From Candidatus Hydrothermarchaeales archaeon (GTDB lineage Archaea; Hydrothermarchaeota; Hydrothermarchaeia; Hydrothermarchaeales; JAZGAD01): a stretch of 64,000 nt of DNA. The notes beneath the pieces were generated by a model. The model was given only the letters and a program-made list of their open reading frames with translations. It ran no database searches and was not told where the DNA came from. Positions 5,323 to 59,318 of this stretch are shown piece after piece; positions within the stretch are counted from its first letter, which is position 1; each line of letters opens with the position of its first letter. The position numbers and the translations under genes were made by a program. Location of the stretch: NCBI GenBank assembly GCA_036444275.1, contig JAZGAD010000010.1, positions 1 through 64,000 of the forward strand, read 5' to 3'.

Positions 5323-5358
5323 CATCTGCAGAGCTCCTGCAAACAAAAAATTAAAAAG

Positions 5359-7242: not shown

Positions 7243-7299
7243 ATATCATCACCGCATCTACCTTCATCCTGCTCTAATATAAAGTTTTCGAATCCAAAA

Positions 7300-9440: not shown

Positions 9441-9688
9441 TATTACTCTAGGAACTTTTTCATATCCACACTAAATTGCAATGCACATTACATGCAGAGC
9501 AGAAGACCTGAAGATGGGTATAATTGCTGGCACTAGCGAACCAGCGGCAAAAGGTTTAAATCATACCGCGGAAGAGGTTATGCGGGAACTGGAAGGAAGA
9601 GGCATCGAGATAATACGGCGTTGAGGCTCAAAGAGAGCACTAAAAATGAGGTAATTCTGGTAGGCAGATACCTAGTGGAGGATTAGCA

Positions 9689-10039: not shown

Positions 10040-11276
10040 GCTCACCGAAGAAGGCTGCAAGTACCTAAGGGAAGGTCTTCCCGAAAAAAGACTCGCCCTC
10101 CTCTTAAAGGAACCCTTAGAGCTAAGAGAAGCTCAGGAGAAGATAGATAATTTCTCTATAGCACTGCAGTGGTGCAAGAAGAAGGGCTGGGTGCGATTAG
10201 AAGAGGGGAAGCTTCACCTAGTTAAAGAGCTTGAAGTAATTCCTGAGGAAGATGCTCTGAAGCAGGTCCACGAAGGGGGCGAGGTAGGGGAAGAAGTGCT
10301 TTCCATCCTTCTAAGTAGGGGTTTGGTGGAGGAAGTAAGAGAGGACATGCTAAAGAGGGCAAAGAAGCTGGTTGGCAAAGAAATCACCATACTGCCCGAG
10401 GAGCTCATAAGGACCGGTTTGTGGAACAAGGTAAAGTTCAAGCCCTATAATGTGGAGGTGCCCGGAAAGCGCATCTACTCCGGGAAGAGGCAACCCTATC
10501 AACACTTCATTGGAAAGATAAAGAGAAAGCTTGTTGAGCTAGGCTTCAAGGAGATGGCTGGACCGCTGGTGGAGACTGAATTCTGGAACTTCGACGCACT
10601 ATACCAGCCTCAGAACCACCCAGCACGGGACTGGACGAGTACCTACCAGCTTAAGTTTCCAAAGCAGGGAGCACTTCCAAGCGGGGAGGTGGTAGAACGC
10701 GTAAAGGCTACCCACGAAGATGGATGGACAACAGGTTCAACGGGATGGAGATATAGATGGGATCCGGCAAAGGCCATGCGCCTCATGCCCAGAGCTCATG
10801 GGACTTGCCTATCTGCTAGGACCCTTGCTTCTGAACCAGAGATCCCTGGGAAGTACTTCGCCATAGCACGCTGCTATCGTCCAGATATGCTTGACGCTAC
10901 ACACCTCATCGAGTTTAACCAGATTGAAGGTATAGTGATCGACGAGTCTTTGAACATGAAAAACCTCCTAGGCATCTTGGAGATCTTCGCAAAAGAAATA
11001 GCAGGGGCAGAGAAAGTCAAATTCTTCCCTGATTACTATCCCTTTACTGAACCCTCAGTGCAACTGTCTGCTCTGCACCCAGAGTTGGGTTGGATGGAGT
11101 TCGGTGGCTCGGGCATATTTAGAGAGGAATTAACTAAGCCACTCGGTGTTAGCGTACCTGTGATAGCTTGGGGTATAGGCATAGATCGCCTGGCCATGTT
11201 CAAGCTTGGGATAAAGGACATACGCGATCTCTTCACTCAGGATTTAAAGTGGCTTAGGGAGAGCAAGGTGGTATAA
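10032..11276 (+). CDS. pheS: Phenylalanyl-tRNA synthetase alpha subunit
   Basis: [38 protein letters not shown] and [11 protein letters not shown] motifs. Confidence 0.97.
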
Positions 11277-12941
11277 GTGCCCAAAGTGGAATTTTCTCTT
11301 CAAGACCTGAATGAATTGCTAAAGGAGCTTTCACCCAGTGAATTGGAAGAGAGGGGGATCCTCTTCGCCAAGGGCGAAATAGAGTCGCTGGAGGGCAACC
11401 TGGTCAAGGTGGACATCAAGGATACCAACCGCCCTGATCTCTGGAGCGTTGAGGGCATAGCCAGGGAGCTTAGGGGGCACTACGGCATAGAAAAAGGTCT
11501 CCCTGTGTTCGAGGTAAGGAGTTCAGGCATAGAGATGCGCATCGATAGGAAGGTGGAAAGGGTCAGGCCCAAGGCTGTTGCTGCTGTTGTCAAGGGGCTC
11601 AGCTTCAATGATGATAGCATAAAGCAGATGATACAGCTGCAGGAGAAGGTCACTCAGAACTATGGGCGGAATAGGAGCCTAGTCGCTATAGGCGTTTATG
11701 ATTGGGCTACACTCAAGCCGCCTATCAGGTACACGACTGTCGCACCAGATGCTATACGTTTCATGCCTCTAGACTTTGAGGAAGAGCTCACCCCCAGGGA
11801 GATCCTTGAGAGGCACCCGAAGGGCAGAGAATTTGGACATTTGATAGAAGGATTCGAGGAATATCCCTTGATGATTGATTCTGAGGACAACGTGCTCTCA
11901 ATACCGCCTATAATAAACTCTGCCTACACGGGCAAGGTAACAGAGGCAACGAGAGACGTGTTCATAGAGGTTACGGGTCACGAAGTAGATAGGATATCTG
12001 TAGCACTAAACATACTGGTGGCTGCCCTATCGGATAGAGGCGGCAGAATAGAGAGTGTTGAGGTAGTATACCCAGAGACGAGGATCGTCACCCCGGATTT
12101 CACCCCTGGGAAGATAACCCTGGATACAGAGGAGTGCAGGAGGATACTGGGGTTAGAGCTGGAGCAGGAGGAAATGATAGAGCTCTTGGAGAGGGCGCGG
12201 TATAGAGCAGTAATAAAGGACGGCAATATCGTAGTGGAATATCCAGGCTACCGTAGGGATATAATGCACCAGCGCGACGTGATGGAGGACATAGCGATCG
12301 CCTATGACTTGAACCGTATACCGCCAGAGCCACCTGAGCTGAGCACTACCGGTAAAGTAAATGAGAAGGAGGATTTTGCAGACTTGCTAAGGGTGCTTAT
12401 GGTCGGCTTGGGCTTTCAGGAAGTACTCACTTTTTCTTTGACCAGTAAAGAGAACCTGTTTGAGAGGATGAATGTCGCAGAGGATAGGGTGTGCGAGATA
12501 GCGAATCCCATTAGCTCTACTTGGACTGCTTTACGAAACTGGCTCCTCCCAAGCGTTGTGGAATTCTTAGCCAATAACCTGCACGTGGAGTATCCCCAGT
12601 GCGTCTTCGAGGTGGGCGACATAGTAGAGATAGACGAAGGCGAGGAGACGAGGACGAGGAACGTAAAGAAATTAGCTTGCGCCATAACATCTGGAGAAGC
12701 AGGCTATGAGGAGGCATCATCAGTGCTGGATGCTCTTTTTAGAAATCTCGGCTTGGACTACGTGCTGAAGAGATCAAAGCACGGGAGCTTCATCTCTGGA
12801 AGGGTTGCTGAAATCTTCCTGGAGAAAGAGTCCATTGGGATTATAGGAGAGATCCATCCGCAGGTGCTGAATAACTGGGGCTTGGAAAAACCTGTAGTTG
12901 CTTTTGAGTTGAGCTTGGAGCCTTTGATGAAGAGGTTCTGA
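11277..12941 (+). CDS. pheT: Phenylalanyl-tRNA synthetase beta subunit
   Basis: [38 protein letters not shown] and GEIHPQVL motifs; adjacent to pheS. Confidence 0.97.
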
Positions 12942-13001
12942 GAGTATGGTAGGCTTTGCTCTGCAATAATTGCTCCATAAAGTCTTTAGCACCCTCTGAA
13001 T

Positions 13002-14258
13002 ATGCCAGACAAATACTTTTTTAATAACCATCTACTTAGTAGGCATATGGATTTTTACCAGGGCTTAGTGACCAATATCCACGACTTTGGGGGCGATATA
13101 GAGGCCAAAAGGAAGTGCCTAGTCGAGATGGCTGAGGAAAGGCCGATTTCCTTGGTGCTACCCATGCTCTACCGGGAGATAGAGGGCAAGGCCCTTCACA
13201 AGATCGTCAGGGACCTAAACACTTGCGACTACGTGAGCCAGGTGTTGATACCTCTAACTGCAAAGAACAGTAGCGAATACAGAAATGTTCTAAAGTTCTT
13301 TGATCGTCTTAAGCTGCCGCACCTTGTGTTATGGTGCAATGGAAAGAGGGTCATGGGGGTACTAGATAATCTCACAGAGGAGGGTATCGATGTGAGAAAC
13401 ATCCTTGGGAAAGGGAGAGATACGTGGATAGCTCTTGGCGTCGCCAGTCTAGATTCCTATGCCATAGCTCTTCACGACGCTGATATCCTCACGTATACCC
13501 CGGATTATCCTGTAAAGCTTCTCTATCCTATAATCGACCCTGATCTGGATTTCATCTTTAACAAGGCGTACTACGCTAGGATAGGTGACGGCGAGAGACG
13601 GATGTACGGACGCGTATTGAGGTTATTCCTTCTTCCACTCTTAAAGGCCCTTCAGAAGAAGGTACGATACCAGTCGAGGTTTCTCAGATATCTGCGGTCC
13701 TTTAGGTATGCTCTATCTGGAGAATTCGCTCTCACCAGCGACCTGGCATTGAACATAAGCATTCCAGGAGATTGGGGCCTGGAAATAGGGATCCTCACTG
13801 AGGTGTATAGAAGTGCCGCTGTGAAGAGAATCTGTCAGACTGACCTGGGGTTCCATGAGCACAAACACCAGAAGATAGGCACGTCGCCTAGTAGGGGCCT
13901 GCTCAAGATGGCAGGTGATATAGAAAAATCTCTACTGAGGTCGCTTACTGAAATGGAGGGTATAGACATATCCGAGGCATTCCTCCTCAGCCTTCAAGTC
14001 CTATACAGGCGCTTGGCCCAGGAGGACATCTACAGGTACAGTGCAGATGCACAGTTCAACGACATCATGTACGACAGACACATGGAGGAGAGCGCTGTGG
14101 ACACATTCAGCAATGCTATTCTAAAAGCTGGTCGGGAATACGTAAAGAACCCCTTCGGTACCATTGTCCCCAGCTGGATAAGGGTCACATCGGCTATGCC
14201 CGGAATTAGGAACCGGTTGAAGGAAGCTGCATTGGTAGATGCTGATAAACTTGGCTAG
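13002..14258 (+). CDS. gpgS: Glucosyl-3-phosphoglycerate synthase-like glycosyltransferase (true start probably 13047, MDFYQG)
   Basis: MDFYQG..T.IHD, GKGRDTW, ALHDADI, KAYYAR..GRV.RLF, FRYALSGEF, DWGLEIG and HKHQ match the long GpgS family. Confidence 0.75.
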   Translation: MPDKYFFNNHLLSRHMDFYQGLVTNIHDFGGDIEAKRKCLVEMAEERPISLVLPMLYREIEGKALHKIVRDLNTCDYVSQVLIPLTAKNSSEYRNVLKFFDRLKLPHLVLWCNGKRVMGVLDNLTEEGIDVRNILGKGRDTWIALGVASLDSYAIALHDADILTYTPDYPVKLLYPIIDPDLDFIFNKAYYARIGDGERRMYGRVLRLFLLPLLKALQKKVRYQSRFLRYLRSFRYALSGEFALTSDLALNISIPGDWGLEIGILTEVYRSAAVKRICQTDLGFHEHKHQKIGTSPSRGLLKMAGDIEKSLLRSLTEMEGIDISEAFLLSLQVLYRRLAQEDIYRYSADAQFNDIMYDRHMEESAVDTFSNAILKAGREYVKNPFGTIVPSWIRVTSAMPGIRNRLKEAALVDADKLG

Positions 14259-46761: not shown

Positions 46762-47779
46762 ATGGATACGGCTGGGAGGATAACCGTCAGCTTCCCATAT
46801 AATCCTTCCTACATTACAAAGATAAAAAGCATAAAAGGTCACAGGTGGCATCCTGAAGAAAAATACTGGCGTGTGCCATACTCTGAGCTTGAAAACCTCT
46901 TATCTGTCTTTGATGGCGAGAAGGCTGATATCGACTCCGCTCTCTATTTCGAGCCCCTGAGAAAAGAGCTTGCATCGAGGAAGTACAGCCGGAGAACGAT
47001 GAAGATGTATCTGCAGTACAATGAGGATTTCTTGAGGTTTGCAAGGAAAACTCCTTACAAGATTTCCAATAGCGACGTGAGGGATTATCTGTATCACTTG
47101 GCGGAGGAGAGGGATGCATCTGCCTCTACCCTGAATATTGCTATAAATGCGTTGAAGTTCTACTATGGTGAGATCTTAAAGCGGGGGTTTGCTTATGGGA
47201 TTAAGAGGCCTAAGAAGGATAAGAAAATGCCCGTTGTATTAAGTCCGGAGGAAGTTTCCAAGATTTTATCTTCACTTTCAAACATCAAGCATAAAGCCAT
47301 TCTTATGCTTATGTATTCTGCTGGATTAAGAGTTGGTGAAGTTGTGAAGTTGAGGGTTGAGGATATAGATACTGGAAGAAAGTTAATTCATATCCGTGGT
47401 GGGAAAGGAAGGAAAGATCGCTATACTATACTTTCAGATGTTGCATTGGAGACCCTCAAAGTATATATCAACGCCTGCAATCCAGAAAATTGGCTTTTTC
47501 CTGGGGGGAAAGGATAGAGGGCATGTTACCACAAGAACTGTGCAAAGGATATTTGAAGATGCCGTCAGAGAGGTCGGTGTTGGCAAAGACGTTAGCGTTC
47601 ATTCTTTGAGACATAGCTTTGCAACACATCTATTAGAAAGCGGCGTAGATTTGAGGTATATTCAGGAATTGTTAGGGCACAAAAGCAGTAAAACGACAGA
47701 GATATACACTCATGTGAGCAACAAGTCTTGGAGCAGAATAAAAAGCCCTCTGGATCTAATTCAAAGAGGTGGGACATGA
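46762..47779 (+). pseudogene. Integron-associated tyrosine recombinase, split by one extra base in a G6 run (47503-47508)
   Basis: ORFs 46762-47517 and 47396-47779 join as [18 protein letters not shown] if one G is removed. Complete catalytic set: [38 protein letters not shown]; terminal SPLD; SAM-like domain YSRRT..Y..ASTLNIAINALKFYY. Confidence 0.9.
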
Positions 47780-47796: not shown

Positions 47797-47874
47797 CGGG
47801 ATGGGTATATGCGCAATGCAGATATAATTCTAAATAGGGATGATATACGCAATGCGTATATGAACGAGTTAGGC
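47797..47874 (+). other. Candidate attI recombination site
   Basis: Core GTTAGGC at 47868-47874, preceded by AAC. Upstream are two related palindromes: ATATACGCA-A-TGCGTATAT (47843-47861, perfect) and TATATGCGCA-A-TGCAGATATA (47806-47826), each preceded by GGGATG. No RYYYAAC-type attC arm is present. Confidence 0.75.
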
Positions 47875-47930
47875 GAAATTTTTAAATCGCCTTTATAAGA
47901 ACTTAAAAAAGGAATGTGAAATAGTTGAAT

Positions 47931-49325
47931 ATGAAAGCTTTAATACTTGCCGCTGGAGACGGTGGCAGATTGGGCAACTTAACTAAAAATAAACCCAAGC
48001 CCCTGATTAAACTTTTGGGATTAACTTTGATCGAAAGAGTAATATTAACTGCAAAACAAGCAGGCATTAAAGAATTCGTGATAGTTTTTGGTTATCTGGG
48101 TGACAAAATAAAAGCAAAATTGGGAACTGGAGATAGGTATGGAGTAGAAATAAACTATATCGAAAATAATGACTGCCAAAAAGAAAATGGGATCTCTGTA
48201 TTAAAGGCCAAAGGATTGTTAAATGAAAACTTCATCCTGTTAATGTCAGACCATATCTTTGATAATCGTATTCTGAAAGAACTTATCGATTATGATACAA
48301 AAAGTTCAGTTGTTTTAGCTATTGATAGAAGAAAATCTCTACCAGGAGACACAAAGGTTCTGGAGAAGGAAGGAAGAATTGTTGATATCGGTAAAAATAT
48401 AGAAGAATCAAACTGCATAGATACGGGTATCTTCTTGTGCTCACCAAAAATATTTTCTCATATTGAAGAAGCAGTAAAAGAAGGTAAAACTGAGCTTGCA
48501 CATGATATTGCTAAAGCTGTTAAGAACAGAGATGCAGAAATATTCGACATCACGCAAATTAACAGCTATATCCCGAGCATGCGGAAGGAGATTAAAGCTT
48601 TCTGGATAGATATTGATACAAAGGAGGATTTAATCAAAGCAAAAAAGCTTTTAATTGAGAATGCCTGTAAAGGACGAAATGACCTGCTTGCAACCTATGT
48701 GAATAAGCCAATAGAAAATTTTATTGTAAGCAGATTGGCGAACACGCAGATTACACCAAACCAGGTTACTATACTAACAAACATAGTTGCTTATACATCC
48801 ACATTTTTATTTCTCGAAGGATATCTATTGTTTGCTTCCATTCTCACCTTTATCGTTTCATTTATGGACGGTGTGGACGGAAAACTTTCAAGAGTGAAAA
48901 TAGCCTTTTCAAATATTGGGAAAATGGAGTACGCCTTCGATTTTCTTTATGAGCATTCATGGTATATCGCCTTAGCCATCTATCTATCAAAGGACTATGG
49001 ACTATCAGCGATTTTACTGTGCACATTCATACTCCTGTTTGATGGTTTTTCTCATTTTTGCAGACAGGCGTTTGGGAAGGCAATAAAGGACCGCCCATTA
49101 ACAGATTATGGACGAATTGAACGGCTATTCAGAAAATTTGATGGTAGGAAGAACAGTTATATAATTTTTATCTTAATAGGTGTTTTGCTAAATGCACCTT
49201 TCTGGTCATTAGTTGCAATATCTGTATGGTCATTGGTCAGTGCTATATTTTATTCTTCAAGGGCGATTTTGCATTTATATCGAGCCGATAAATCAACTCA
49301 GGGACCATATGGGAGCAAAAGATGA
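47931..49325 (+). CDS. Bifunctional IPCT/DIPPS-like protein (NTP transferase + CDP-alcohol phosphotransferase)
   Basis: KALILAAGDGGRL..KPKPL, ENGIS, MSDH, DTGIF, WIDIDT; then ITPNQVT and DGVDGKLSR..S.IG...D. Confidence 0.85.
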   Translation: MKALILAAGDGGRLGNLTKNKPKPLIKLLGLTLIERVILTAKQAGIKEFVIVFGYLGDKIKAKLGTGDRYGVEINYIENNDCQKENGISVLKAKGLLNENFILLMSDHIFDNRILKELIDYDTKSSVVLAIDRRKSLPGDTKVLEKEGRIVDIGKNIEESNCIDTGIFLCSPKIFSHIEEAVKEGKTELAHDIAKAVKNRDAEIFDITQINSYIPSMRKEIKAFWIDIDTKEDLIKAKKLLIENACKGRNDLLATYVNKPIENFIVSRLANTQITPNQVTILTNIVAYTSTFLFLEGYLLFASILTFIVSFMDGVDGKLSRVKIAFSNIGKMEYAFDFLYEHSWYIALAIYLSKDYGLSAILLCTFILLFDGFSHFCRQAFGKAIKDRPLTDYGRIERLFRKFDGRKNSYIIFILIGVLLNAPFWSLVAISVWSLVSAIFYSSRAILHLYRADKSTQGPYGSKR

Positions 49326-49402
49326 AGATAAGAATGATGTGGCTTGGGAAGGTCGTCAACGGACCTTCCATCCACCTGAAATTAGTAGGGAGGGCTTGAA
49401 CA

Positions 49403-50527
49403 ATGAAGATCGCTTACGTATCAACCTATCTCCCCAAACAGTGTGGGATAGCCACCTACACGGATTATCTCATTCACGGTCTCAGAGAGGTGGATCCGGC
49501 ATTGGAGATTAAGATCATTGCCGAACAAGGAGCATCTCCTATCAAACAAGATAAACTTGAAGTGATCCCCTCCTGGGATAGAAACGAGGATTATGTAGAA
49601 CCTATCATCTCACGCACAAAGGGTGCAGATGTAATCCACATTCAGCACGAATACGGCATATACAAATTTGATGATAGATTACCATTATTACTCCAGGGAT
49701 TGGACCCAGATGCCCGGAAGGTGATAACCATCCATTGCGTGAGACCAGCTCAGTTCTCCGAAAGAGATGCTGTAGATGAGAATTTTGCAGCAAAAATCGC
49801 TCAACTTGCCGATCAGGTCATCGTACACCTTGAGTCGCAAAAAGCAATCCTGACACGACTTGGAATACCATCAGGAAAGATTCACATTATTCCCCATGGA
49901 ACAGTGCTTAGTGATGAGGATAAAGAGGCTTCACGGAAGAGGCTCGGACTGCCCAAGGACGCAAAGATACTTCTCATGTTCGGGTTTGTCAAGAAACACA
50001 AGTGTTTACACATCGTTCTTGAGGCCCTCGTTGAGATATTGGAGAAATTCAAAGATATATATCTATTTGTGGCCGGAGGTCTTGCTCCAATAGCCTCACA
50101 GAAGGACAGGGACTATGCAGAATATGTGGGCAAGAGGATAGCGGAACTGGGGCTTCAGAAGAACGTCATCTACCCAAACAGGTTCTTTCCCAACGAAGAT
50201 GTGCCATATCTGTTGGGGGCATCTGACATTATCCTGTTTCCTTACTATGAGGAGGACCGCTCTGCCTCGGGCTCATTTCACCTGGCCATTGGTGCGAAAA
50301 AACCAGTTATTGCTTCGAGGATACCCAAGTTTGAAGAACTGAGAAATATCTGCGATGAACTTCTTGTCCTTCCGTATAACTCTTCGGGAATTGCAAAAGT
50401 AGTCATTCGTCTTTTTGAAGACTCAAAATTTCGGCAGTATGTAGTCAATCGCACCGAAGAATACAGAAATCTTACCTCCTGGCAAACCGTAGCGCACCAA
50501 CACTTGAAATTGTATAAGGGAGTTTGA
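49403..50527 (+). CDS. GT-B (GT4-like) glycosyltransferase
   Basis: STYLPKQCGIATYT, HIQHEYG, IPHG, FGFV..HK and SASG...LAIG..KPVIAS motifs. Confidence 0.88.
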   Translation: MKIAYVSTYLPKQCGIATYTDYLIHGLREVDPALEIKIIAEQGASPIKQDKLEVIPSWDRNEDYVEPIISRTKGADVIHIQHEYGIYKFDDRLPLLLQGLDPDARKVITIHCVRPAQFSERDAVDENFAAKIAQLADQVIVHLESQKAILTRLGIPSGKIHIIPHGTVLSDEDKEASRKRLGLPKDAKILLMFGFVKKHKCLHIVLEALVEILEKFKDIYLFVAGGLAPIASQKDRDYAEYVGKRIAELGLQKNVIYPNRFFPNEDVPYLLGASDIILFPYYEEDRSASGSFHLAIGAKKPVIASRIPKFEELRNICDELLVLPYNSSGIAKVVIRLFEDSKFRQYVVNRTEEYRNLTSWQTVAHQHLKLYKGV

Positions 50528-50528
50528 G

Positions 50529-51569
50529 ATGAAGATAGGAATGATGACCGCTTGGAACCAAGATGTAGGACCTTCTATTCATGCCGAGCTGATCGGCAGA
50601 GAATGGGTGAAGATGGGTCATGAGCTTAGAATTTTTTCCTTCCTTAAGTCAGATTTTCATGGCACAGCCATTGTTGGTCAGGATGAGGAGTATGTGCTCC
50701 GATGTTTTACTACATCTACGGCAGAAAGACCATTTTTGGATGCTCGTCCCTTCGTAGAATTCCATCCCGATATTTTCATTACCCAAGATCTTGGGACGTT
50801 GCCAATGGATGCTCTCGCAAAGATTTTCCACCTTATAAAAAAAGAAGCAAAGACGATAACCGTGATCCACGATCGAATGCTTTCATCAAATCCATCTTTT
50901 TATCAATTTGAATGGGATGCGATTATTTGTAGCGATAAAAGGTACGTAGAATTTCTTAAAGAGGCTTATCCAGAGGAAAAAATCTATGTAATACCCCATC
51001 CATACAATAAGTGGAGAGCCGGGGATAAGATTCGGGCAAGAAAGAAATTAGATCTGCCACTCGATAAGAAGATTATCCTGAACTTTGGTCAAAGAGTAAA
51101 GGATTTCAAAGAAACACTTCCTGCGATTTCCGAACTTCAGTCCAACTATCCGATTCTTGTTTTGGTAGTTACCAGAGAAGAAATAGAAGAACTCAGAAGA
51201 GAAACAACTTTACCAATTGAGATAAGGGAAGAGAGCCCATGTATAGAAAGGGTTTATGAGTATTTACACGCATCAGATGCCATGGTACTTCACCGTAAAT
51301 CTATTGAGGGGATTGTCTATTCAAGCACCACTTATCAGTGCTTAGGATCAGGTTGTTCCGTCGTTGCGCTAAACTCAAACTTCTTCCAGCCATTTGGTGT
51401 GGAAGTCTTAAAATATGATGACTTAGCGGGCTTAAAGGAGTGCCTAATCGATATATTTAAAGAAGGAAAAAGATATAAAACAGCAAAATTATTAGCGGAA
51501 AGGGTGGTAAAAAGAAATACTCCACAAGAGATAGCAACTAAATTCATTAAACTTTTTGAATCGCTGTGA
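50529..51569 (+). CDS. GT-B glycosyltransferase, paralog of 52326-53369
   Basis: MKIGMMTAWN.D.G..IHAE..G..W.KMGH, DFHG....DEEYV.RCF, FYQFEWD and SST.YQ.LG.GC are shared with the downstream paralog. Confidence 0.7.
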   Translation: MKIGMMTAWNQDVGPSIHAELIGREWVKMGHELRIFSFLKSDFHGTAIVGQDEEYVLRCFTTSTAERPFLDARPFVEFHPDIFITQDLGTLPMDALAKIFHLIKKEAKTITVIHDRMLSSNPSFYQFEWDAIICSDKRYVEFLKEAYPEEKIYVIPHPYNKWRAGDKIRARKKLDLPLDKKIILNFGQRVKDFKETLPAISELQSNYPILVLVVTREEIEELRRETTLPIEIREESPCIERVYEYLHASDAMVLHRKSIEGIVYSSTTYQCLGSGCSVVALNSNFFQPFGVEVLKYDDLAGLKECLIDIFKEGKRYKTAKLLAERVVKRNTPQEIATKFIKLFESL

Positions 51570-51710
51570 TGGGTAAAATGAAATCTAAAACTTTTGTTGG
51601 TAGAGAGAATAAATTAAAGCTACTGGAACACTATTTTGAAGAAACCATCAAAAACAAAAAAAGGCATTGTTATTTTGCTTACATGAGGAAATAGGTATTG
51701 GCAAACAGAC
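51569..51710 (+). pseudogene. 5' stub of an AAA/STAND ATPase gene
   Basis: MGKMKSKTFVGRENKLKLLEHYFEE, then a frameshifted Walker A remnant GIVILLT../EEIGIGK. Confidence 0.6.
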
Positions 51711-52042
51711 GCTTAACACCCTGGGGCAGCTGGCAGGTTCTTGCTGAAGGCCGAGAATATAAGGTAAAACTGATTAAAGTGAAGCCAGGGCACCGCTTTA
51801 GCCTCCAGTTGCATAATCGTAGAGATGAGCACTGGATGGTTGTTTCAGGTCAAGCAAGAGTAGAGATTGGAGACAAAACAGTTAAAGCTAAACCCGGAAA
51901 ATACATATTCATTCCTAAAAAGACGAAGCACCGGCTGCAAAATCCGGGAAAGAGTCGTCTCGTGGTAATTGAGGTTCAAAGGGGTAAATATCTAGAAGAG
52001 GACGATATTGTTCGCCAAGAAGATAATTATGGAAGGTCATGA
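51698..52042 (+). CDS. Mannose-6-phosphate isomerase type II cupin domain (ManC C-terminal-like)
   Basis: PWGSW, KVK.I.VKPG...SLQ.H..R.EHW.VV.G, HRL.NPG and IEVQ.G.YL.EDDIVR..D.YGR. Confidence 0.9.
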   Translation: MANRRLTPWGSWQVLAEGREYKVKLIKVKPGHRFSLQLHNRRDEHWMVVSGQARVEIGDKTVKAKPGKYIFIPKKTKHRLQNPGKSRLVVIEVQRGKYLEEDDIVRQEDNYGRS

Positions 52043-52302
52043 AACTTAATTCAGAGATTTTTAGAGAGCACGATATAAGGGGAGTGGTTGATAAGGACTT
52101 GGATCCGGAGGTGGTGGAAGAAATTGGTAGGGCCTTTGGGGCTTATATTGGGAAGGGTAAGGTGGCGGTAGGACAGAGGGGATATTGAGATAATGAGCAA
52201 AGATTTAAAACTTAGCAACTAGAGTTAGAAGAGATTAATGATATCTTCATCGAAAGGCTTAAGAAGTATCCTCAAATGGACATTAAGCCGTTTAGAGGAT
52301 AA
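52039..52302 (+). pseudogene. Phosphomannomutase/phosphoglucomutase gene with large internal deletion
   Basis: MKLNSEIFREHDIRGVVDKDLDPEVVEEIGRAFGAYIGKGKVAVG is the PMM/PGM N-terminus. It stops at 52188 and is followed by a probable C-terminal remnant LEEINDIFIERLKKYP. Confidence 0.8.
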
Positions 52303-52325
52303 TTATTTTGGAAGGAGGCTAGAGG

Positions 52326-53369
52326 ATGAGAATTGCTATGATGAGTGCTTGGAACACAGATAGTGGAGTAGCTGTACATGCAGAACCATTGGGCAAAGCC
52401 TGGATAAAGATGGGACATAAGTTAACTGTATTTACTTTCATCAAGGATGACTTCCATGGGGAGGGGTTTACCGGCGAAGATGAGGAGTATGTAGTCAGAT
52501 GTTTTGGCACTCAAGAGCATACCAACTTCTTAGACCCCCGGCCTATCCTCACCACGGACTTTGATATCTTCGTAGTTCAGGATTTAAGGATACTTCCAGT
52601 AGAAAAATTAGCCAAAGTATTTAGCCTGATTAAACAGCGGGCCATGACAATACATATAGTTCATGAAAATAAATTACCTGATGATGCCTGGTTTTATCAA
52701 TTTGACTGGGACAAGGTAGTCTATTTTGATCAGAGGCAGGAATTCCTAAAAGAGATATACCCTGACGCTAAACTTATCCCTTTTCCTTGTTATGAACTAA
52801 GAAGGCGTGATAAGCTTGAGGCAAAAAAGAGGTTAGAGCTCCCCCTGGATAAGAAAATCATCTACTCTTTTGGCCAACGCGGCTATCATTCCTATCTTCG
52901 AAACTTACCTGATGAGATTAAAGATAAGGCAGTGCTTCTACATGTTGTCTCCAAAGAATACCAGATGCTTGAAGAGGAATCTCCTCCCGATTGGATGATT
53001 ATTAGAAGAGAGGATGTTTTATCCCGCGAGAAATTTAATGACTATCTCTTTGCCTCGGATGCGGCTATTTTTCATAAGTTCCAGAGCCGTTATCATGCCG
53101 TTGTTTCCTCTACGGTCTTTCAGGCATTAGGTTGTGGTTGCCCAATCTTAGTTCCCCGGCAATCGGATTTCTTTCATCCTATGCAGAATGAGGTCATACG
53201 TTATGGAGATACTCCCGACTTAAATAGGAAGCTGCTTGAATTATTTGGAGATGAACAGACATCTCAAACAGTCCAAGACGCAGCAGAAGGGTTTGTGTCA
53301 ATGAATTCACCAGAAAAAATTGCCAAAAGGTATATCGGGCTATTTACTGAGGTCTTAAGAGCAAGATAA
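52326..53369 (+). CDS. GT-B glycosyltransferase, paralog of 50529-51569
   Basis: MRIAMMSAWNTDSGVAVHAE, DFHGE, FYQFDWD and SSTVFQALGCGCP; GGAGG RBS. Confidence 0.7.
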   Translation: MRIAMMSAWNTDSGVAVHAEPLGKAWIKMGHKLTVFTFIKDDFHGEGFTGEDEEYVVRCFGTQEHTNFLDPRPILTTDFDIFVVQDLRILPVEKLAKVFSLIKQRAMTIHIVHENKLPDDAWFYQFDWDKVVYFDQRQEFLKEIYPDAKLIPFPCYELRRRDKLEAKKRLELPLDKKIIYSFGQRGYHSYLRNLPDEIKDKAVLLHVVSKEYQMLEEESPPDWMIIRREDVLSREKFNDYLFASDAAIFHKFQSRYHAVVSSTVFQALGCGCPILVPRQSDFFHPMQNEVIRYGDTPDLNRKLLELFGDEQTSQTVQDAAEGFVSMNSPEKIAKRYIGLFTEVLRAR

Positions 53370-53404
53370 GATGTGCAAGAAAAATTTTATCATCGAGCCA
53401 TTTT

Positions 53405-53677
53405 GTGGATTATCCAAACAACCCAATTTTAGCTCCGGCAAAAGGTTTCACCTCACAAGGAATATATAACCCTACAGTGATTAAAGAAGGAAAAAAATTC
53501 TTTATGCTATTCAGGGCTGAGGCAGAAGATGAGTTGACGGGAAGGATAGGGCTTGCTAAAAGTAGTGATGGCATCCAATTTAGCTTGCACCCCGAACCAG
53601 TAATAGTGCCTTCTGCGGATTTCGATAAGTTCGGCTGTGAAGACCCCCGGGTGGTGAGATTTAAAGATACTAAGTAA
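53405..53677 (+). pseudogene. Truncated GH130-family glycosidase/phosphorylase (N-terminal 90 aa)
   Basis: NPIL.P, IYNP, MLFRA, RIGLA.S.DG..F and GCEDPRV, then an abrupt stop. Confidence 0.8.
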
Positions 53678-53680
53678 AAT

Positions 53681-53931
53681 GTGGGAAGAATCAAGATTGC
53701 TATTATAGGAGTAGGCAACTGCGCCAGTTCTCTGGTGCAAGGTTTATGGTTCTATAAAGATTCATCAGAAGAAAAAGTTATCGGCTTAATGCACTACGAT
53801 GTTGGTGGGTACAAGGTATGGGATTTGAGGTAGCGGCTGCCTTTGATATCGATAAGCGAAAGGTTGGCAAGCCCTTGAATGAGGCGATATTTGCCAGGCC
53901 GAACTGCAGGAGAATTTATAAAATTATTTAA
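53681..53931 (+). pseudogene. ino1: 5' fragment of myo-inositol-1-phosphate synthase, frameshifted
   Basis: [26 protein letters not shown]...[14 protein letters not shown] / [27 protein letters not shown]; frameshift near 53825. Confidence 0.85.
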
Positions 53932-53955
53932 CAAGTTGTTATAAGGGGTAATGTA

Positions 53956-55125
53956 ATGAACACTTTGGAAGAATTAGGAGATGGCAAGGTTATCGAAATC
54001 GAATCAGGAGCGACCATTTTTAAACTGGAGTCCGATGAAAAAAACCCTATTGTCAGACCCCAAGACCTCGGGCTCACCTGGAATGAGAATGGCGAATCGA
54101 AGATTGGGGCAGTTTTCAACGGTGGGGCTGAATTTTTCGAGAATAAGGTTATTCTTTTGCCAAGGTGTCATAGAGATTACCGAAAGGGCGAATTCTTTGA
54201 CGAAAAGTTAGGCATTGAGAGGACCTGCCTGGAAAACTACATTTCCGAGGTTTGGCCTTTGGTGAGCGAGGATGGCGTCCACTTCACCAGATTCCATAAC
54301 GTGGTAATCCGGGGCGATGGCACCGACCATCAGGACTTTACCTACGGAATAGAGGACATCCGAATCGTTAAGTACGGCCGGAGATACCTGCTGATCGGGT
54401 GTGGGAAGATAAAACCTCCGTTTAAAGGCGGCAATGCGGATCGAATTGCCATTTACACAACCAAAGATTTTGTGAAGATTAACTATCAGGGCATAGTGGA
54501 CTCCTTTGACTCGCGCAATGCGGTTCCCTTCTCCGAGCCGGTAAATGGACAACACTGGATACTCCTGCGTTTTCATACTAATATTCACATAGATTTTCTT
54601 GAAGCCGGCATAAATCAATTGCTGAATCCTTCCCAGCACACAGAACAGTGGGATGAAATCTATGAGCGACAGAGCCAGAATCTCCTTTTAGAAGCTGGGC
54701 ACTACCCGCACGAAAAGCAGAAAATCGGCCCGGGCCCCCAGGTGCTCAGAACCGATAGGGGTTGGTTGCTCATCTACCATGCTGTTGGTGAGATAGAATA
54801 TAATATCTGCAAAGCCTACGGGTTGACGGAAAAAATTGAAAGAGGATACTCCATCTGCGCTGCCCTTTTGGACTTAGACGATCCACGAAAGGTGCTTTGT
54901 CGAACCAGAAATCCAATCTATATTCCTTCAACCCCTTACGAATTATATGGTAACGATCAATATCCAGTGGATGTGTCTGCAGTCGTTTTTCCCATGGGTG
55001 CTATTGTTCGAAAAGAAAAACTGATTCTCTATGCCGGAGCTGGCGATAAATACATCATCCTTTTGAGCTGCGATCTTGATAACTTAGTTAATTATTTATG
55101 GGAGTATTGCAAGTACATTGCATAG
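53956..55125 (+). CDS. GH130-like beta-propeller glycosidase/mannoside phosphorylase
   Basis: NPIVRP, AVFNGG, GIEDIRI, KIGPG, GWLLIYHAV, ALLDLDDPRKV, VVFPMG and YAGAGD motifs. Confidence 0.82.
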   Translation: MNTLEELGDGKVIEIESGATIFKLESDEKNPIVRPQDLGLTWNENGESKIGAVFNGGAEFFENKVILLPRCHRDYRKGEFFDEKLGIERTCLENYISEVWPLVSEDGVHFTRFHNVVIRGDGTDHQDFTYGIEDIRIVKYGRRYLLIGCGKIKPPFKGGNADRIAIYTTKDFVKINYQGIVDSFDSRNAVPFSEPVNGQHWILLRFHTNIHIDFLEAGINQLLNPSQHTEQWDEIYERQSQNLLLEAGHYPHEKQKIGPGPQVLRTDRGWLLIYHAVGEIEYNICKAYGLTEKIERGYSICAALLDLDDPRKVLCRTRNPIYIPSTPYELYGNDQYPVDVSAVVFPMGAIVRKEKLILYAGAGDKYIILLSCDLDNLVNYLWEYCKYIA

Positions 55126-55149
55126 GAACTACCATTGACTTGGCACATC

Positions 55150-55219
55150 GCCTAACAACGGCTAAAAGGCTCCGCCCAAATTTGCTCCGCTAACTTCTTT
55201 TATCCGCAATACGTTAGGT
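55150..55219 (+). other. attC site 1
   Basis: R'' GCCTAAC (55150-56), R' GTTAGGT (55213-19); inner arms CGGCTAAAAG / CTTTTATCCG. Confidence 0.8.
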
Positions 55220-55267
55220 GAAATGCCTAAGCCCGCTTTGATGGTAAAATTAAAATAAGAATATGTC

Positions 55268-55588
55268 ATGGGTGACTGTATGAAAGGCAAAAACACTCTT
55301 ACAGAAATAATGGACATCTTTAAAAAATATGAAAAGGAACTGAACAGAAGGTACGGGATCAAAAAGATTGGGATATTTGGCTCGTACCTAAGAAGCGAAG
55401 CTGGAGAGGAGAGCGATCTAGATATACTTGTAGAATTTGAACAAGACGTAGATATAGGGCTTTTAAAATTTGTAGAGATAGAGAACTATCTGAGTGACCT
55501 TCTTGGTGTTAAAGTGGATTTGGTGGAAAAATCTGCATTAAAACCGAGGATAGGACGGCGTATATTGAAAGAGGTTGTTTACGCATGA
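55268..55588 (+). CDS. MntA-type nucleotidyltransferase antitoxin (cassette 2)
   Basis: [23 protein letters not shown] and LGVKVDLV motifs. Confidence 0.92.
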
Positions 55589-55929
55589 AGAGAGAGGTTG
55601 GAGACTATATTCAAGATGTCATCGACGCTACGAATAAAGGCATGAGATTTGTTGAGGGTGTGGAATATGAAGATTTCATTCATGATGATAAAACCGTATT
55701 TGCTGTGATAAGAGCTATAGAGGTTATTGGTGAAGCAGTCAAAAATATACCTGAAGATGTAAAAATGGAGTATCCCGAAATTCCCTGGAGAGATATTGCC
55801 GGAATGAGAGATAAGCTTATTCATGCTTATTTTGGAGTTAGCATCAAAAGAGTATGGAAAGCTATAAAAGAAGAAATTCCTCCATTAAAACCTGTATTTG
55901 AAAAAATGCTTAAGGACTTAGAAAAATGA
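55585..55929 (+). CDS. HepT/DUF86 HEPN toxin (cassette 2)
   Basis: EVIGEAVK and [21 protein letters not shown] (RX4HXY); ATGA overlap with the antitoxin gene. Confidence 0.92.
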
Positions 55930-56005
55930 GGTCTATAATATTCGGTAGGCTTGGGTACTCTGCGGATTTGCATTGCAAATCCTTGCCCTCGCTATCGCTC
56001 GGGTC

Positions 56006-56156
56006 GCCTAACAGGCGGGTATGCGGTTCGAAATGATGAAAAGTGGTCTCACCCAGATTCCTTTGACAACGGTTATATTCAGCTTTCACATTGCTCTCAC
56101 CTGATGAAATCGGGATGCTCGCAGTCGGCACTTCGCATACCCGCGAAACGTTAGAC
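56006..56156 (+). other. attC site 2
   Basis: R'' GCCTAAC (56006-12), R' GTTAGAC (56150-56); perfect 11-bp arms GCGGGTATGCG / CGCATACCCGC. Confidence 0.82.
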
Positions 56157-56200
56157 GCAATAAATTTCAATAGTTTGATTTTATATGGAGATATACAATC

Positions 56201-56635
56201 ATGAAAAAGTTTCGAGATGTCGATGAGATAAAAGTAAAATTAGAAGAAGTGAATGCCTTATTTGAAAAAGGTGATCTTGCATGTTTTTTGTATCTATCAA
56301 GTTATATTGAAGATCGCCTGAAACGTAATCTAATGGTTCATTGTTTGTCAGAAGACAGATATTCTAAAGAGATTGAACATTATATTTTCAACTTAAATCT
56401 CTATAATTTAATTGAAATATCCAACTTATTCGGATTAATTACTAAAGAAACTTATACGGATTTGGAAATTTATAGAAAGTTTAGAAATGAATTGTTTCAT
56501 GATGCAATTTTCAATGAAGCAATTGATAGAGAGTATGAGAAATATTATTCATTAGGTTGTAAAATAATATGTGAACTTCATGACACGGGTGTCGAAATAT
56601 GCGACGCAATAACCAAAAAAGTAGACATTTCCTAA
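56201..56635 (+). CDS. Hypothetical helical protein with HEPN-like RX4H motif (cassette 3)
   Basis: IE..LK...; YRKFRNELFHD; AT-rich; GGAG RBS. Confidence 0.6.
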   Translation: MKKFRDVDEIKVKLEEVNALFEKGDLACFLYLSSYIEDRLKRNLMVHCLSEDRYSKEIEHYIFNLNLYNLIEISNLFGLITKETYTDLEIYRKFRNELFHDAIFNEAIDREYEKYYSLGCKIICELHDTGVEICDAITKKVDIS

Positions 56636-56645
56636 AATTTACATC

Positions 56646-56729
56646 GCCTAACAGAGCGTATCTGGTTCGCTATCGCTCACCTAAATCTCTCCCGTTGCCT
56701 GAACTTCAGATACGCTCGGAACGTTATAT
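56646..56729 (+). other. attC site 3
   Basis: R'' GCCTAAC (56646-52), R' GTTATAT (56723-29); perfect 11-bp arms GAGCGTATCTG / CAGATACGCTC. Confidence 0.85.
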
Positions 56730-56785
56730 GCAATTTCAAAGAAGTTACTATTCCCCAATTTGAGTTATTAAAGGAGGTCTAACTT

Positions 56786-57697
56786 ATGTCAATGAAGTCT
56801 AAAAGAAAAGACCCCACACCTAAACAGAAAGAAAAATTGCTCTCTATGAATGCGGGAGTTTGCTGTGTATGCAAAACAAGAGGGCAAGGTGTTAATTTTC
56901 ATCATATTGACGGTGACAATACCAACACTGTCATTGAAAACTTAGCTGTTCTTTGCATCAAGGATCATGATGCATATCATAGACCTCAGGTTTATACAGA
57001 GATGAAACATTTAGAGCTTGGAGCTGAAAAGATATTAAAATGCAAGCTTGAATGGGAATCATTTATAAAAGCAGCACAAAAAGAAAGTCCCAAAGTGCTA
57101 GCTGTAATAAATATTTACGGGACTGAAGAAAGCATACATTCTATGAGATTAATTTTCCAGACAATTGAATCAAAAATAATTTTTGAACGACTATATCATC
57201 TACTTACAGGATCACCTAAAAGTTGGATAGATTCTGCAATTGATGAAGTTCGCTGGCTTGGATCAAATATTCCACTTTCAATAGTAGATAAACCACTTCC
57301 AATTGAATATTGCCCTTGCTGTGATAAATCTTTAGCGAATGTAATTGATAGTAATGTTGCAAAGAGGATAACGGCAAGCAATTGGGAACAAAATTCTATC
57401 TGTTCTATTTATATCAATCCTTCACAACCTTCTTTGGCAATTATACTATTGTATGAAAAAGAAGTTCTTCTTACCGGATCACTTCATAAATGTGGTGAAT
57501 GCCTACATTTCATTTGTGATAATTTCGAGGAAAGAGTTCCAATTAAAAAATCGCCCAGCGTGAGAACTCAGGCAACTAGAATTTTATCTAAAGTTTTAAG
57601 TGAGTGGCACCCAGCCCAAATACTTATTGGAACAGGAGATGAAGATAATCCTGAGATCATTGACAATTTGAACCTATCACGAATATGGGAGAATTAA
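56786..57697 (+). CDS. HNH endonuclease-domain protein (cassette 4)
   Basis: CCVC...FHHIDGDNTNTVIENLAVLCIKDHDAYH; additional CPCC and HKC..C; GGAGG RBS. Confidence 0.8.
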   Translation: MSMKSKRKDPTPKQKEKLLSMNAGVCCVCKTRGQGVNFHHIDGDNTNTVIENLAVLCIKDHDAYHRPQVYTEMKHLELGAEKILKCKLEWESFIKAAQKESPKVLAVINIYGTEESIHSMRLIFQTIESKIIFERLYHLLTGSPKSWIDSAIDEVRWLGSNIPLSIVDKPLPIEYCPCCDKSLANVIDSNVAKRITASNWEQNSICSIYINPSQPSLAIILLYEKEVLLTGSLHKCGECLHFICDNFEERVPIKKSPSVRTQATRILSKVLSEWHPAQILIGTGDEDNPEIIDNLNLSRIWEN

Positions 57698-57735
57698 GAT
57701 TATTACTCAAATAACTCAAATTATGATGAAACGGC

Positions 57736-57798
57736 GTATAACAGAGCATACCTGGCTTCGTGCCTTCGGCGGACTTCAGATACACGCAACCGTTAAGT
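57736..57798 (+). other. attC site 4
   Basis: R'' GTATAAC (57736-42), R' GTTAAGT (57792-98); imperfect arms GAGCATACCTG / CAGATACACGC, closely related to attC3. Confidence 0.78.
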
Positions 57799-57839
57799 GA
57801 AAAAGCCCAAAGTTTATTGAATTAAAATGAGGCAAATCC

Positions 57840-58364
57840 GTGAAAGATAATAAACTTCAACAGCTCAAAGTTGTAATCTCCCTTCTTGAGAAGTATAATA
57901 AAATCGAAGAAAAATTAAAAGAGCTCAAAATCGTTCGAACGAGAAAGGTTATCTCAGAAGTTGGCGAGTGGTATGTCTCTATTCTTTTTAATTGTAAAAT
58001 AAATACTAACCCGTCTGAAAAAGGATTCGATTGTATTGACCCTGAGACTGGGAAGAAGATTGAAATAAAGACTATCAGAAAATCAGAAAGTAATCCTATT
58101 GGCTATAGGTTATCTAAGGATAAAGTCGAGCGGCAAATTTTTGATGAACTTATTATTTTGAGGTTGGGAGATAATTTTCGGATAAGACAATTGTTTAAGT
58201 TGGATAGAGATGATATTTCGGAGGAGAATTTTTCCCTTCTTAGCAGTGCGAAATATAATTTGAGTTGGAATTCCTTAAAAAAGGGAAACTTCGAAGTTAC
58301 TCATGAAAATGCTTTACAAAGAGGGTTAGATGATATAGAAGTATTTAGAATGCTAATGGAATAA
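57840..58364 (+). CDS. Putative PD-(D/E)XK nuclease-fold protein (cassette 5)
   Basis: EVGEWYV...SEKGFDCID...KKIEIKT pattern. Confidence 0.65.
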   Translation: MKDNKLQQLKVVISLLEKYNKIEEKLKELKIVRTRKVISEVGEWYVSILFNCKINTNPSEKGFDCIDPETGKKIEIKTIRKSESNPIGYRLSKDKVERQIFDELIILRLGDNFRIRQLFKLDRDDISEENFSLLSSAKYNLSWNSLKKGNFEVTHENALQRGLDDIEVFRMLME

Positions 58365-58377
58365 TATGGGCTTCTTC

Positions 58378-58453
58378 GCCTAACAGTGTGTTTGCGAAGT
58401 GCCGAAGGCATTTGGGTGAGCATGATGCACCGCAAACACACGAACCATTACGC
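58378..58453 (+). other. attC site 5 (terminal, degenerate R')
   Basis: R'' GCCTAAC (58378-84); perfect 11-bp arms GTGTGTTTGCG / CGCAAACACAC; the R' position reads ATTACGC (58447-53). Confidence 0.75.
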
Positions 58454-58607
58454 GACATTGCGAAATATAAGAATTTGCGTCTTTTAGATATTCAAAATGG
58501 AAATTTCAGGCGCAGTTATTCTTGAATACCAAAAGTGACCTAGTGAATTTCCTAAATACTTAAATACAATCCATAATCCCTTTTTATTATCTGAATGGGG
58601 ACGAAGT

Positions 58608-59318
58608 ATGAGAAAGATACTCCCACTAGCTGTCATCCTTATCTTGATCCTAGCGGTCGGCTACTTTTACTTGTCTCAGAGACCGAGAGAAGAACTCGTA
58701 GGCTCCGAGGCAATAGGAGAAAACGCCCGAATTCTCACCATTAAGACCGAAGTCAAGGGCGTAGAGCACACGAGGCATGACATAGAGTACACCAGAGAAG
58801 AACGGACTTTCAGGAACTATTTCGACTCCAAACTGAGGCCTGCATTGGCCTGGATAAAAGGAAACGCACCTGAAGATGCTGTCTTCCTCTGTTGGTGGGA
58901 CTATGGGCATATGATACGTGGCTATACCGAGAGAGACGCAGTGGTATATAGTCCTTCTAAGGGCATAATGGAGACTGTATCCAGCGGCAAGTGGGACACC
59001 TCCGCTAGTGGAGACTTCTCTACAGAGGAAAGGATAAGAGAAGTAGCTCTAGCCCTAACAGCAAGAGATCCAAAAGAAACTCTTGATATAATGAAAAAAT
59101 ACAGAGCTAACTATGTCTTTATAACCGCAGAGGATTCTGCGAAGAGCTTTGCCATCTTCTCTAGCTTGGGCTACGACCCCTCTGAGTATCTAGTGGATTG
59201 GAAGCCTACAGAGAAAGCCATGGAAACTATGCTCTTCAAGATGCTCGGGCACGAGCGGGTAGAGGGCTTGAACCTGCTGTATTCAGATGAATTCGTGAAA
59301 ATCTATGGGCTAGAATGA
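58608..59318 (+). CDS. Membrane-anchored stand-alone AglB/STT3 C-terminal (WWDYG) domain protein
   Basis: One N-terminal TM; AL.WIK.N.P.DAV.LCWWDYGH.I, KYRANYV, D.AK and LYSDEFVKIY. Confidence 0.75.
   Translation: MRKILPLAVILILILAVGYFYLSQRPREELVGSEAIGENARILTIKTEVKGVEHTRHDIEYTREERTFRNYFDSKLRPALAWIKGNAPEDAVFLCWWDYGHMIRGYTERDAVVYSPSKGIMETVSSGKWDTSASGDFSTEERIREVALALTARDPKETLDIMKKYRANYVFITAEDSAKSFAIFSSLGYDPSEYLVDWKPTEKAMETMLFKMLGHERVEGLNLLYSDEFVKIYGLE

Follow-up and report, generated by a model that had tools for sequence, protein, structure and literature searches.

The DNA analysed here (the window: 64,000 nucleotides (nt), contig C10 of a 1.49-Mb, 61-contig, 81%-complete assembly of a Candidatus Hydrothermarchaeales archaeon) carries an integron at ~46.4–58.5 kb, which comprises a tyrosine-recombinase (integrase) gene on the + strand, an interval of 7.3 kb, five attC sites, and four ordinary cassettes (Table 1). 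The interval lies between the attachment site attI and the first attC site (attC1) and contains open reading frames (ORFs) for an IPCT/DIPPS-like enzyme (hereafter IPCT), glycosyltransferases (GTs), a cupin, and a GH130-type protein, together with the stubs of further genes. A preliminary description, made from the letters of this DNA, had taken it for one giant cassette in first position. Cassettes are usually taken as small and mostly single-gene, and a cassette of this length is several times larger than usual. The G+C content is 34–47% in the integron compared with 47–51% in the flanks. In the codes used below, G denotes related genomes of the same order (40 were searched), L compared loci or contigs, C contigs, and X studies whose contigs were searched in Logan.

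Table 1 Features of the integron in the window. aa, amino acids; MIPS, inositol-3-phosphate synthase.
Feature	Position	Strand	Details
Integrase gene	46762..47779	+	Co-directional with the cassettes; frames 46762–47517 and 47396–47779
attI	47800..47868	+	Near-palindromes at ~47806–47826 and arms 47843–47851/47853–47861, then GAACGA and crossover G 47868
Cassette 1 (giant cassette)	47869..55213	+	7,345 bp; attI to attC1
Cassette leader	47869..47930	+	R′ remainder TTAGGCGAAAT; inverted repeat AGGCGA/TCGCCT; TTTATAA at 47892–47898
IPCT/DIPPS-like, NTP-transferase/CDP-alcohol phosphotransferase, 466 aa	47925..49325	+	Pfam; likely true start ATG 47931
GT N-terminal stub, ~25 codons	49323..49398	+	blastn match to L061 continues to 49398 = L061 11028, inside the L061 GT; left breakpoint of the mosaic
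GT4a, GT4-family glycosyltransferase	49403..50527	+	Pfam Glycos_transf_1 / Glyco_transf_4
GT4b, glycosyltransferase-like	50529..51569	+	Weak Glyco_transf_4 match; 79% aa identity to L143
Insert without counterpart in L143	51560..52325	+	44-aa ORF, cupin, PMM stub, 28-aa ORF
Cupin, 114 aa, PMI C-terminal type	51698–52042	+	GMP/PMI match confined to the C-terminal 110 positions
PMM N-terminal stub (domain I)	52027–52188	+	Pfam
GT347, glycosyltransferase-like, 347 aa	52326..53369	+	82–88% aa identity to L080–L087; 85% nt identity to L084 and L082
GH130′ N-terminal stub (second GH130 type)	53405..53677	+	Pfam positions 33–110 of 320
MIPS N-terminal stub, frameshifted	53678..53906	+	Verified part 53678–53833
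GH130 phosphorylase-like, 389 aa	53956..55125	+	76% aa identity to GH130 of L061 and of L143
attC1	55143..55226	+	R″ GCCTAAC 55150–55156; R′ GTTAGGT 55213–55219; TT bulge in the L′ arm
attC2	55999–56163	+	Covariance models
attC3	56639–56736	+	Covariance models
attC4	57729–57805	+	Covariance models
attC5	58371–58460	+	Covariance models
Cassettes 2–5	55214..58460	+	MNT/HEPN pair; ORFs of 144, 303, and 174 aa

Boundaries and gene content of the 7.3-kb interval

A DNA search of the 40 related genomes with follow-up comparison showed that seven other loci carry the attI core ...GATATACGCAATGCGTATATGAACGA|GTTA (two in G003, and G011, G016, G017, G008, and contig C13 of the host). The blastn similarity of these loci ended at window 47870–47871 (crossover GTTA) with unrelated sequence beyond, and this comparison proves a crossover at G47868/T47869, which places the 5′ end of the interval at a G/TT. 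The 9-mer GTTAGGCGA occupies 47868–47876, making T47869 the first cassette base. The attI site lies beside the integrase gene and a one-strand attC array, a layout also present in L019, L020, and L022; the core itself recurs across six genomes of the order (L020, L021, L022, L023, L024, L027, and L029). As for the cassette start, the inverted repeat AGGCGA...TCGCCT (47871–47893) is kept in G025 and G003 with variable loops, and one of its arms reads TCACCT in the leader of L061. The TATA-like TTTATAA of the leader, noted in the preliminary description, is shared by the leaders of L061 and L044 and not by those of L055, G025, and G003.

To locate attC sites, we used two covariance models. Model R1 was built from the five aligned attCs of the window (R″/R′ of 7 bp, L″/L′ of 11 + 3 bp, and a two-base bulge) and model R2 from 13 attCs of the window, the host genome, three relatives, and L061; both searched the complete 64 kb on both strands with filters switched off. 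In R2, 10 of the 21 pairs change on both sides, and 85.9% of cells are paired compared with at most 40% in slid controls, so that covariation supports the modelled structure. The five attCs scored 45–88 bits by the two models together and 56–88 bits by R1. attC1, which scored 76.8 bits (R1) and 69.9 bits (R2), folds on the bottom strand into R and L stems, so the interval ends in an attC at its 3′ side, and the position of its R′ makes G55213 the last cassette base. attC5, the last site of the array, has ATTACGC (58447–58453) in place of the expected R′ GTTRRRY.

No internal site was detected by R2 in 47869–55142 at E ≤ 10. The sole R1 match inside these limits (47882–47924, 8.3 bits, E 6.6) is at chance level and was unseen by R2; it was rejected. 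A Pfam scan of nine ORFs of the block named no transposase family, and a repeat search found no bracketing or terminal repeats around it, the longest inverted pairs being 38 nt at 74%. The extent of the interval and the absence of attCs from the gene gaps were thus described correctly from the outset. The 9-bp complementarity between the start of the interval and attC1, also noted there, is real: GTTAGGCGA occurs five times in the window compared with 0.36 expected. The + strand has it once, at 47868, and the four − strand copies fall within attC1, attC2, attC3, and attC5. Since the 9-mer is present equally in these four sites, the complementarity cannot name the partner attC and is not diagnostic.

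The six apparently intact ORFs reported previously (466, 374, 346, 114, 347, and 389 aa) were all recovered, at least four stubs (GT, PMM, GH130, and MIPS) were verified, and two short ORFs were found besides; for the latter (51560–51694 and 52216–52302) Pfam names no family. The IPCT protein aligned over its full length with IPCT/DIPPS of Archaeoglobus fulgidus (PDB 4mnd, E 2.9e-34) and has the same two-domain architecture, but differs from it in the motif at two positions (S for A and E for D); its NF041135 score was 194.9 bits, under the cut-off of 580. GT4a shows 83% aa identity to its counterpart in L143 and 60% to that in the second cluster of L057. The 114-aa cupin may itself be a remnant. 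The MIPS stub matched residues 15–62 of PDB 1gr0 (E 3.7e-9) and L084 12315–12548 at 88.5% nt identity, and no PDB match was obtained for its second frame (53758–53931). A full-length GH130′ gene is located downstream of GT347 in L143, L084, and L057. The terminal GH130 protein scored 111.3 bits with PF04041, over the cut-off of 26, and did not reach NCBIfam equivalog cut-offs; its nearest solved structures are beta-1,2-mannobiose and beta-1,2-oligomannan phosphorylases. Taken together, the IPCT/DIPPS-like enzyme, a GH130 protein close to mannoside phosphorylases, the GTs, and the PMM, cupin, and MIPS remnants suggest, with low to moderate confidence, that a solute or head group of the mannosylated inositol-phosphate type is made and recycled. 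Such a product would presumably resemble the mannosyl-di-myo-inositol phosphate of Thermotoga. The host genome has its own inositol-1-phosphate synthase (MIPS) gene at C53:89731–90992, beside a stand-alone NTP-transferase with 49% identity to the N-terminal domain of the cassette enzyme.

Relatives in other integrons and in attC-less clusters

Two contigs carried relatives of the block with the same ends between attC sites, as the preliminary description had proposed to look for. L061, a contig of an Ignavibacteria-labelled metagenome-assembled genome (MAG), has an array of four attCs, all on one strand, that includes a cassette of 4,933 bp (compared with 7,345 bp in the window) in the order attC, leader, IPCT (88% aa identity), GT, GT, GH130 (76%), and attC; the array extends beyond the cassette with more attCs to both sides. 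In blastn, the window matched L061 from 47868 at 88.2% over 1,536 nt (to 49398, including IPCT) and again over 54009–55227 at 80%. In the 60 nt downstream of the crossover, 55 are identical to L061, compared with 34 of 60 upstream, where L061 has an attC and the window an attI. The second relative, L143, belongs to the 77 loci obtained by a scan of metagenome contigs for GT347. R2 was applied to 42 of these loci and found attCs in L143 (six) and L082 (one), and in no others among the 42. L143 contains a 7,529-bp stretch between two attCs of its one-strand array, from which the first gene (IPCT) is gone. At its 5′ side it has the R′ remainder GTTAGGCGAAAT, the final ~30 nt of IPCT, and the GT stub known from the window, followed by GT4a (83%), GT4b (79%), a GT347-type gene (68%), full GH130′, GT, GH130 (76%), and an attC homologous to attC1. 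No internal attC was detected in the L061 or L143 cassette with filters off.

The homology of the window stops at 55214, the crossover, with L143 and at 55227 with L061. The terminal attCs of the three are homologous, and the downstream cassettes differ in all three. Since both ends of the block are cassette ends in L061 and L143, the block is one member of a lineage of 5–7.5-kb cassettes, and related forms of one cassette thus occupy three distinct recombination contexts, a sign of mobility. The cassettes of the lineage start at G|TTAGGCGAAAT and end in one particular attC with GCACATCGCCTAACA.CGG.TAAAA.... No other locus contained the identical 7.3-kb form in full. On these comparative grounds, which we take as decisive, 47869–55213 is very probably one exceptionally large integron cassette, which occupies the first position in an integron of archaeal type and belongs to a lineage of multi-gene cassettes.

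The window copy matches L061 at its ends only, and the left match goes 73 nt beyond the IPCT stop into the first GT of L061. With L143 it shares 49318–51579 (80.6%), 52326–53670 (71%), and 53952–55214 (78.9%); 51580–52325 is missing from L143, where GT4b abuts the next GT. The missing part and its surroundings have relatives elsewhere: in L087, the cupin (93.7% nt identity) directly abuts GT347, and L084 carries GT347–GH130′ at 85% and the MIPS-stub region at 88.5% after a further GT. The middle of the window cassette is thus common to L143 and non-integron clusters, with gene stubs at the joints, and the stubs GH130′ and MIPS are attributable to deletions, one reaching from GH130′ into MIPS and one from MIPS as far as the terminal GH130. 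By this comparison, the window cassette is a mosaic that descends from a multi-gene cassette which was mobile before, and no pristine captured operon.

Contigs of four coded Logan studies (X1, X5, X7, and X8) cover the interior. Among the matches listed, on which all the figures given here are based, joints were crossed by X1 (49279–49450, 51473–53739, and 53710–54117; X1 may be the source sample), by X5 (49375–49654), and by X7 (51669–52718, with a 33-nt skip), and X8 crossed no joint. In one X5 contig, 71 other letters replace 53503–53971 (469 nt), from GT347/GH130′ to the terminal GH130, giving a variant without the MIPS stub.

The following course of events is proposed. A tyrosine recombinase would excise and insert the unit, like any cassette, by exchange between the G/TT of a folded attC and that of attI or a second attC, so that 5–7.5 kb with an operon would move as one piece. 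A four-gene, L061-like cassette (IPCT/DIPPS-like, GT, GT, and GH130) would have come first. Its two central GTs would then have been swapped, from about codon 25 of the first GT, for genes of a glyco-cluster (GT4a, GT4b, GT347, GH130′, GT...), the likely route being recombination with paralogous clusters. One descendant (L143) would have lost IPCT. The window copy would have retained IPCT and acquired the cupin/PMM piece, and everything from GH130′ up to where the terminal GH130 starts would have dropped out of it, leaving stubs at the joints.

We compared the genes of the cassette with those of attC-less clusters. In L057, a contig of a Methanophagales-labelled MAG, the order is AsnC-type regulator, IPCT, GT, GH130, MIPS, methyltransferase/ATP-grasp fusion, GT4a, GT347, and GH130′. 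Its IPCT shows 76% identity to that of the window and 75% to that of L061, its GT 64% to the first GT of L061, and its GH130 57–58% (57% to the window); GT4a (60%) and GT347 (59%) also match the window. L052, of a Methanosarcinales-labelled MAG, has IPCT–GT–GH130 arranged in the same way without attC, and many metagenome contigs carry attC-less clusters of GT4a–GH130–GT4b–GT347–GH130′. No attC was found in L057 with filters off. These non-integron clusters thus contain the same families in the same local order as the window, but unlike the window they have no leader, attC, or attI, and an AsnC-type regulator lies upstream. The order IPCT–GT–GH130 outside integrons favours operon capture as a possible source of the ancestral four-gene cassette, which would later have undergone exchange with paralogous clusters.

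In the order of the host, full-length relatives of IPCT were present in two of the 40 genomes at 59–60% aa identity. In contrast, tblastn gave 72–88% aa identity in most of the 32 loci that it retrieved from named MAGs (L044–L072 among them), whose labels include KSB1, Ignavibacteria, Anaerolineae, Zixibacteria, Planctomycetota, Altiarchaeales, Methanosarcinales, Methanophagales, and others. These labels span many bacterial phyla and three archaeal orders, and the identities are much higher than those of the relatives in its own order. Such a distribution is consistent with cross-domain cassette exchange in marine sediments, and we count it as probable horizontal spread in favour of the cassette reading. 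A one-gene form occurs in L055, with the same leader (GTTAGGCGAAAT...), IPCT alone, and an attC-like site (R2, 18.9 bits) whose left half is attC1-like. In this locus (4884–14140), the IPCT cassette follows an attI-like site, the attC-like site is at 6374–6478, and the next attC (14049–14140) comes 7.6 kb on; the stretch downstream may be another oversized cassette or contain missed attCs. In L053 and L045, IPCT is followed 45–70 nt on by another type of attC.

Integrase gene and alternative readings

A frameshift in a G/A run near 47500–47517 splits the integrase gene into two overlapping frames, and one TAG lies within the family match; it is not the intact gene expected of an IntI platform. 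Both pieces matched Pfam Phage_int_SAM_4 and Phage_integrase, and TIGR02249 matched at profile positions 4–178 and 233–313 only. The intact orthologue is in L019 of genome G004 (4571–5575, −). It scored 237.8 bits with NF040815 (XerA_Arch), over the cut-off of 220 and in one stretch, and 230.3 bits with TIGR02249 (integron integrase), under the cut-off of 265 and in two stretches. Aligned with VchIntIA, it has 20 residues compared with 60 in the IntI-specific segment, i.e., ~40 residues fewer. The VchIntIA alignment, TIGR02249, and NF040815 thus agree that the IntI-specific additional domain is absent, and without these ~40 residues the integrase and its L019 orthologue lack one feature by which IntegronFinder and Ghaly et al. 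define IntI. The integrase carries an extra N-terminal segment of ~60 aa. A look-up in the ESM Atlas returned generic XerD-like clusters and nothing more specific. At most attI-core loci, C-terminal remnants of an integrase or none were present, so that integrase decay next to a conserved attI seems to be common in this group. Because the integrase of the host is frameshifted, the cassette is probably immobile there at present unless a recombinase is supplied in trans.

The alternative that deserves most weight, rather unlikely as we judge it, is that a small cassette with one gene (IPCT or GH130) was enlarged, the other genes being added by non-integron recombination or by fusion through loss of attCs, and that no operon was ever captured whole. 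The L055 form with its IPCT alone and attC1-like left half, the other attC type shortly after IPCT in L053 and L045, and the demonstrable replacement of the window's own middle by recombination all agree with this course. However, L055 may equally be a deletion derivative, since the right half of its attC is unpaired with the left half; IPCT–GT–GH130 is contiguous without attC in L057 (75%, 64%, and 58% aa identity to L061) and in L052; and no attC remnant lies between the genes in the window, L061, or L143. The preliminary description had preferred the capture of a whole operon as one cassette and had named an operon inserted into, or fused with, a smaller cassette as its alternative. Each proposal holds in part: the block is one cassette-like unit from attI to attC1, but as a mosaic it is no fresh capture of a whole operon of this host, and insertion or fusion accounts for a part of its history.

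Two further readings deny the unit altogether. The interval could be host chromosome (7.3 kb) between an In0 (the integrase and attI) and an unrelated cluster of attC sites lacking an integrase (CALIN; attC1–attC5). Standard 4-kb clustering would score the locus so, glycosylation genes (AglB-like and GT2) occur beyond the array too, and in G003 an attI-like|IPCT junction is followed by truD with no attC; against this, both block ends coincide to the base with the cassette ends of L061 and L143, the composition of the block is unlike that of the flanks, and the first gene shows 59–60% identity in two of 40 related genomes compared with 72–88% in distant phyla. We regard this as the least probable of the readings, and extremely so. 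That the integron platform, the glyco-gene cluster, and the attC array were joined from different organisms by misassembly is only slightly less improbable. The assembly is metagenomic, attI and attC repeats are places where assemblers break or mis-join, and no independent contig bridges 47868, the attI-to-IPCT junction, among the matches listed. Nevertheless, contigs of three studies (X1, X5, and X7) cross internal joints and X8 covers the interior without crossing one; furthermore, the attI-type|IPCT junction recurs in G025, G003, L044, and L055, and the GH130–attC junction is found unchanged in both L061 and L143.

Several observations weigh against a single cassette as well, in addition to the unbridged junction. 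Besides the integrase, which is frameshifted and without the IntI-specific insertion, the 81%-complete assembly has no recombinase of this type; PF00589 gives a second, more distant match on C57 of the host genome. The predicted fold of attC1 is weak (−10.6 kcal/mol, z −1.24), and the terminal attC of L143 has a degenerate R′ and folds no better than shuffled sequences. The hosts of L061 and L143, which are unbinned or MAG contigs, are uncertain. As to movement of the 7.3-kb copy itself, the contigs contained no circle junction and no usable joint of an empty attI to cassette 2; a joint 47879→56645 in X5 was considered as an empty-attI junction and rejected, being present in one contig with a side of 22 nt, which is too short. 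Finally, G003 and G025 have IPCT after an attI-like site (|GTTA(G/A)GCGAA) with no attC found downstream, and in G003 truD comes directly after the IPCT gene. We tentatively read both as decayed remnants. They had also raised the idea that GTTAGGCGA and IPCT are the native flank of an unoccupied attI, which was dropped because L061 has the same leader directly downstream of an attC.

Comparison with known integrons and neighbouring features

In the integrons of Spirochaetota, the integrase gene runs in the same direction as the cassettes, as it does in the window, and the integrase clade is different. Such co-directional ('reverse orientation') integrons are also mentioned in a passage of the archaeal survey of Ghaly et al. 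2022 (PMC9668308). As described in that survey, archaeal integrons form attC arrays in archaeal MAGs, place attI directly after intI with the canonical G/TT as point of insertion, include numerous CALINs and In0s, and share cassettes across domains, all of which agree with the locus studied here; however, their IntIs are said to have the IntI-specific domain, whereas the window integrase and its orthologue are ~40 residues short. In one supplementary file of the same study, the GH130 and CDP-alcohol family names had no occurrences. Like ordinary cassettes, as portrayed in sections of Cury et al. 2016 (PMC4889954) and Loot et al. 2017 (PMC5371416), cassette 1 starts after G/TT and ends in an attC of R″–L″–L′–R′ with bulged bases, and its lineage occupies varied array positions. 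It differs from them in having its own TATA-like element.

In the portion of Cury et al. 2016 concerned with cassette size, the largest known cassette is ~2 kb, which is the basis of the 4-kb rule for clustering attCs, and a <4-kb rule was used in the archaeal survey according to its relevant section. Loot et al. 2017 state in a passage on cassettes that most contain one coding sequence and that cassette genesis is 'largely unknown'. In open-access full text, the literature covered here, we found the '~2 kb' statement and no report of multi-gene cassettes as large as this one; subscription journals were outside this scope. A lineage of 4.9–7.5-kb cassettes with 4–6 genes would mean that integrons can traffic complete pathways, and the attC-less operon and the cassette form would be a concrete pair for studying cassette genesis. 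Under the 4-kb rule, loci like the window would be mis-scored as In0 plus CALIN. As a tentative generalization with somewhat less than even chances, integrons (here with a recombinase lacking the canonical IntI insertion) may carry and move 5–9-kb operons across both domains; the cassettes would derive from chromosomal operons, of which the attC-less IPCT–GT–GH130 cluster survives in ANME-1 and Methanosarcinales MAGs, and would expand and contract as they recombine with paralogous clusters. If this is true, the oversized class would be systematically missed, because surveys cluster attCs at ≤4 kb.

Outside the integron, Pfam identified NMD3, a THUMP methyltransferase, an AglB/STT3-like fragment, and tRNase Z, a set that fits an archaeal host. 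Rfam gave two tRNAs and nothing else over the window. The AglB-like fragment (58608–59318) adjoins the end of the array. The host genome contains a second attI-like site on C13 (~11935–12542, L029) with a C-terminal integrase remnant, a cassette of ~0.5 kb, and an attC scoring 40.8 bits; at C27:20840–20944 (L028), another attC (51.3 bits) stands alone. The MNT/HEPN cassette (55268–55929) matched several related genomes at 70–87% nt identity (e.g., G025:C116 and G003:C58), and a more distant homologue (41–44% aa identity) is located downstream of an IPCT cassette in L053.

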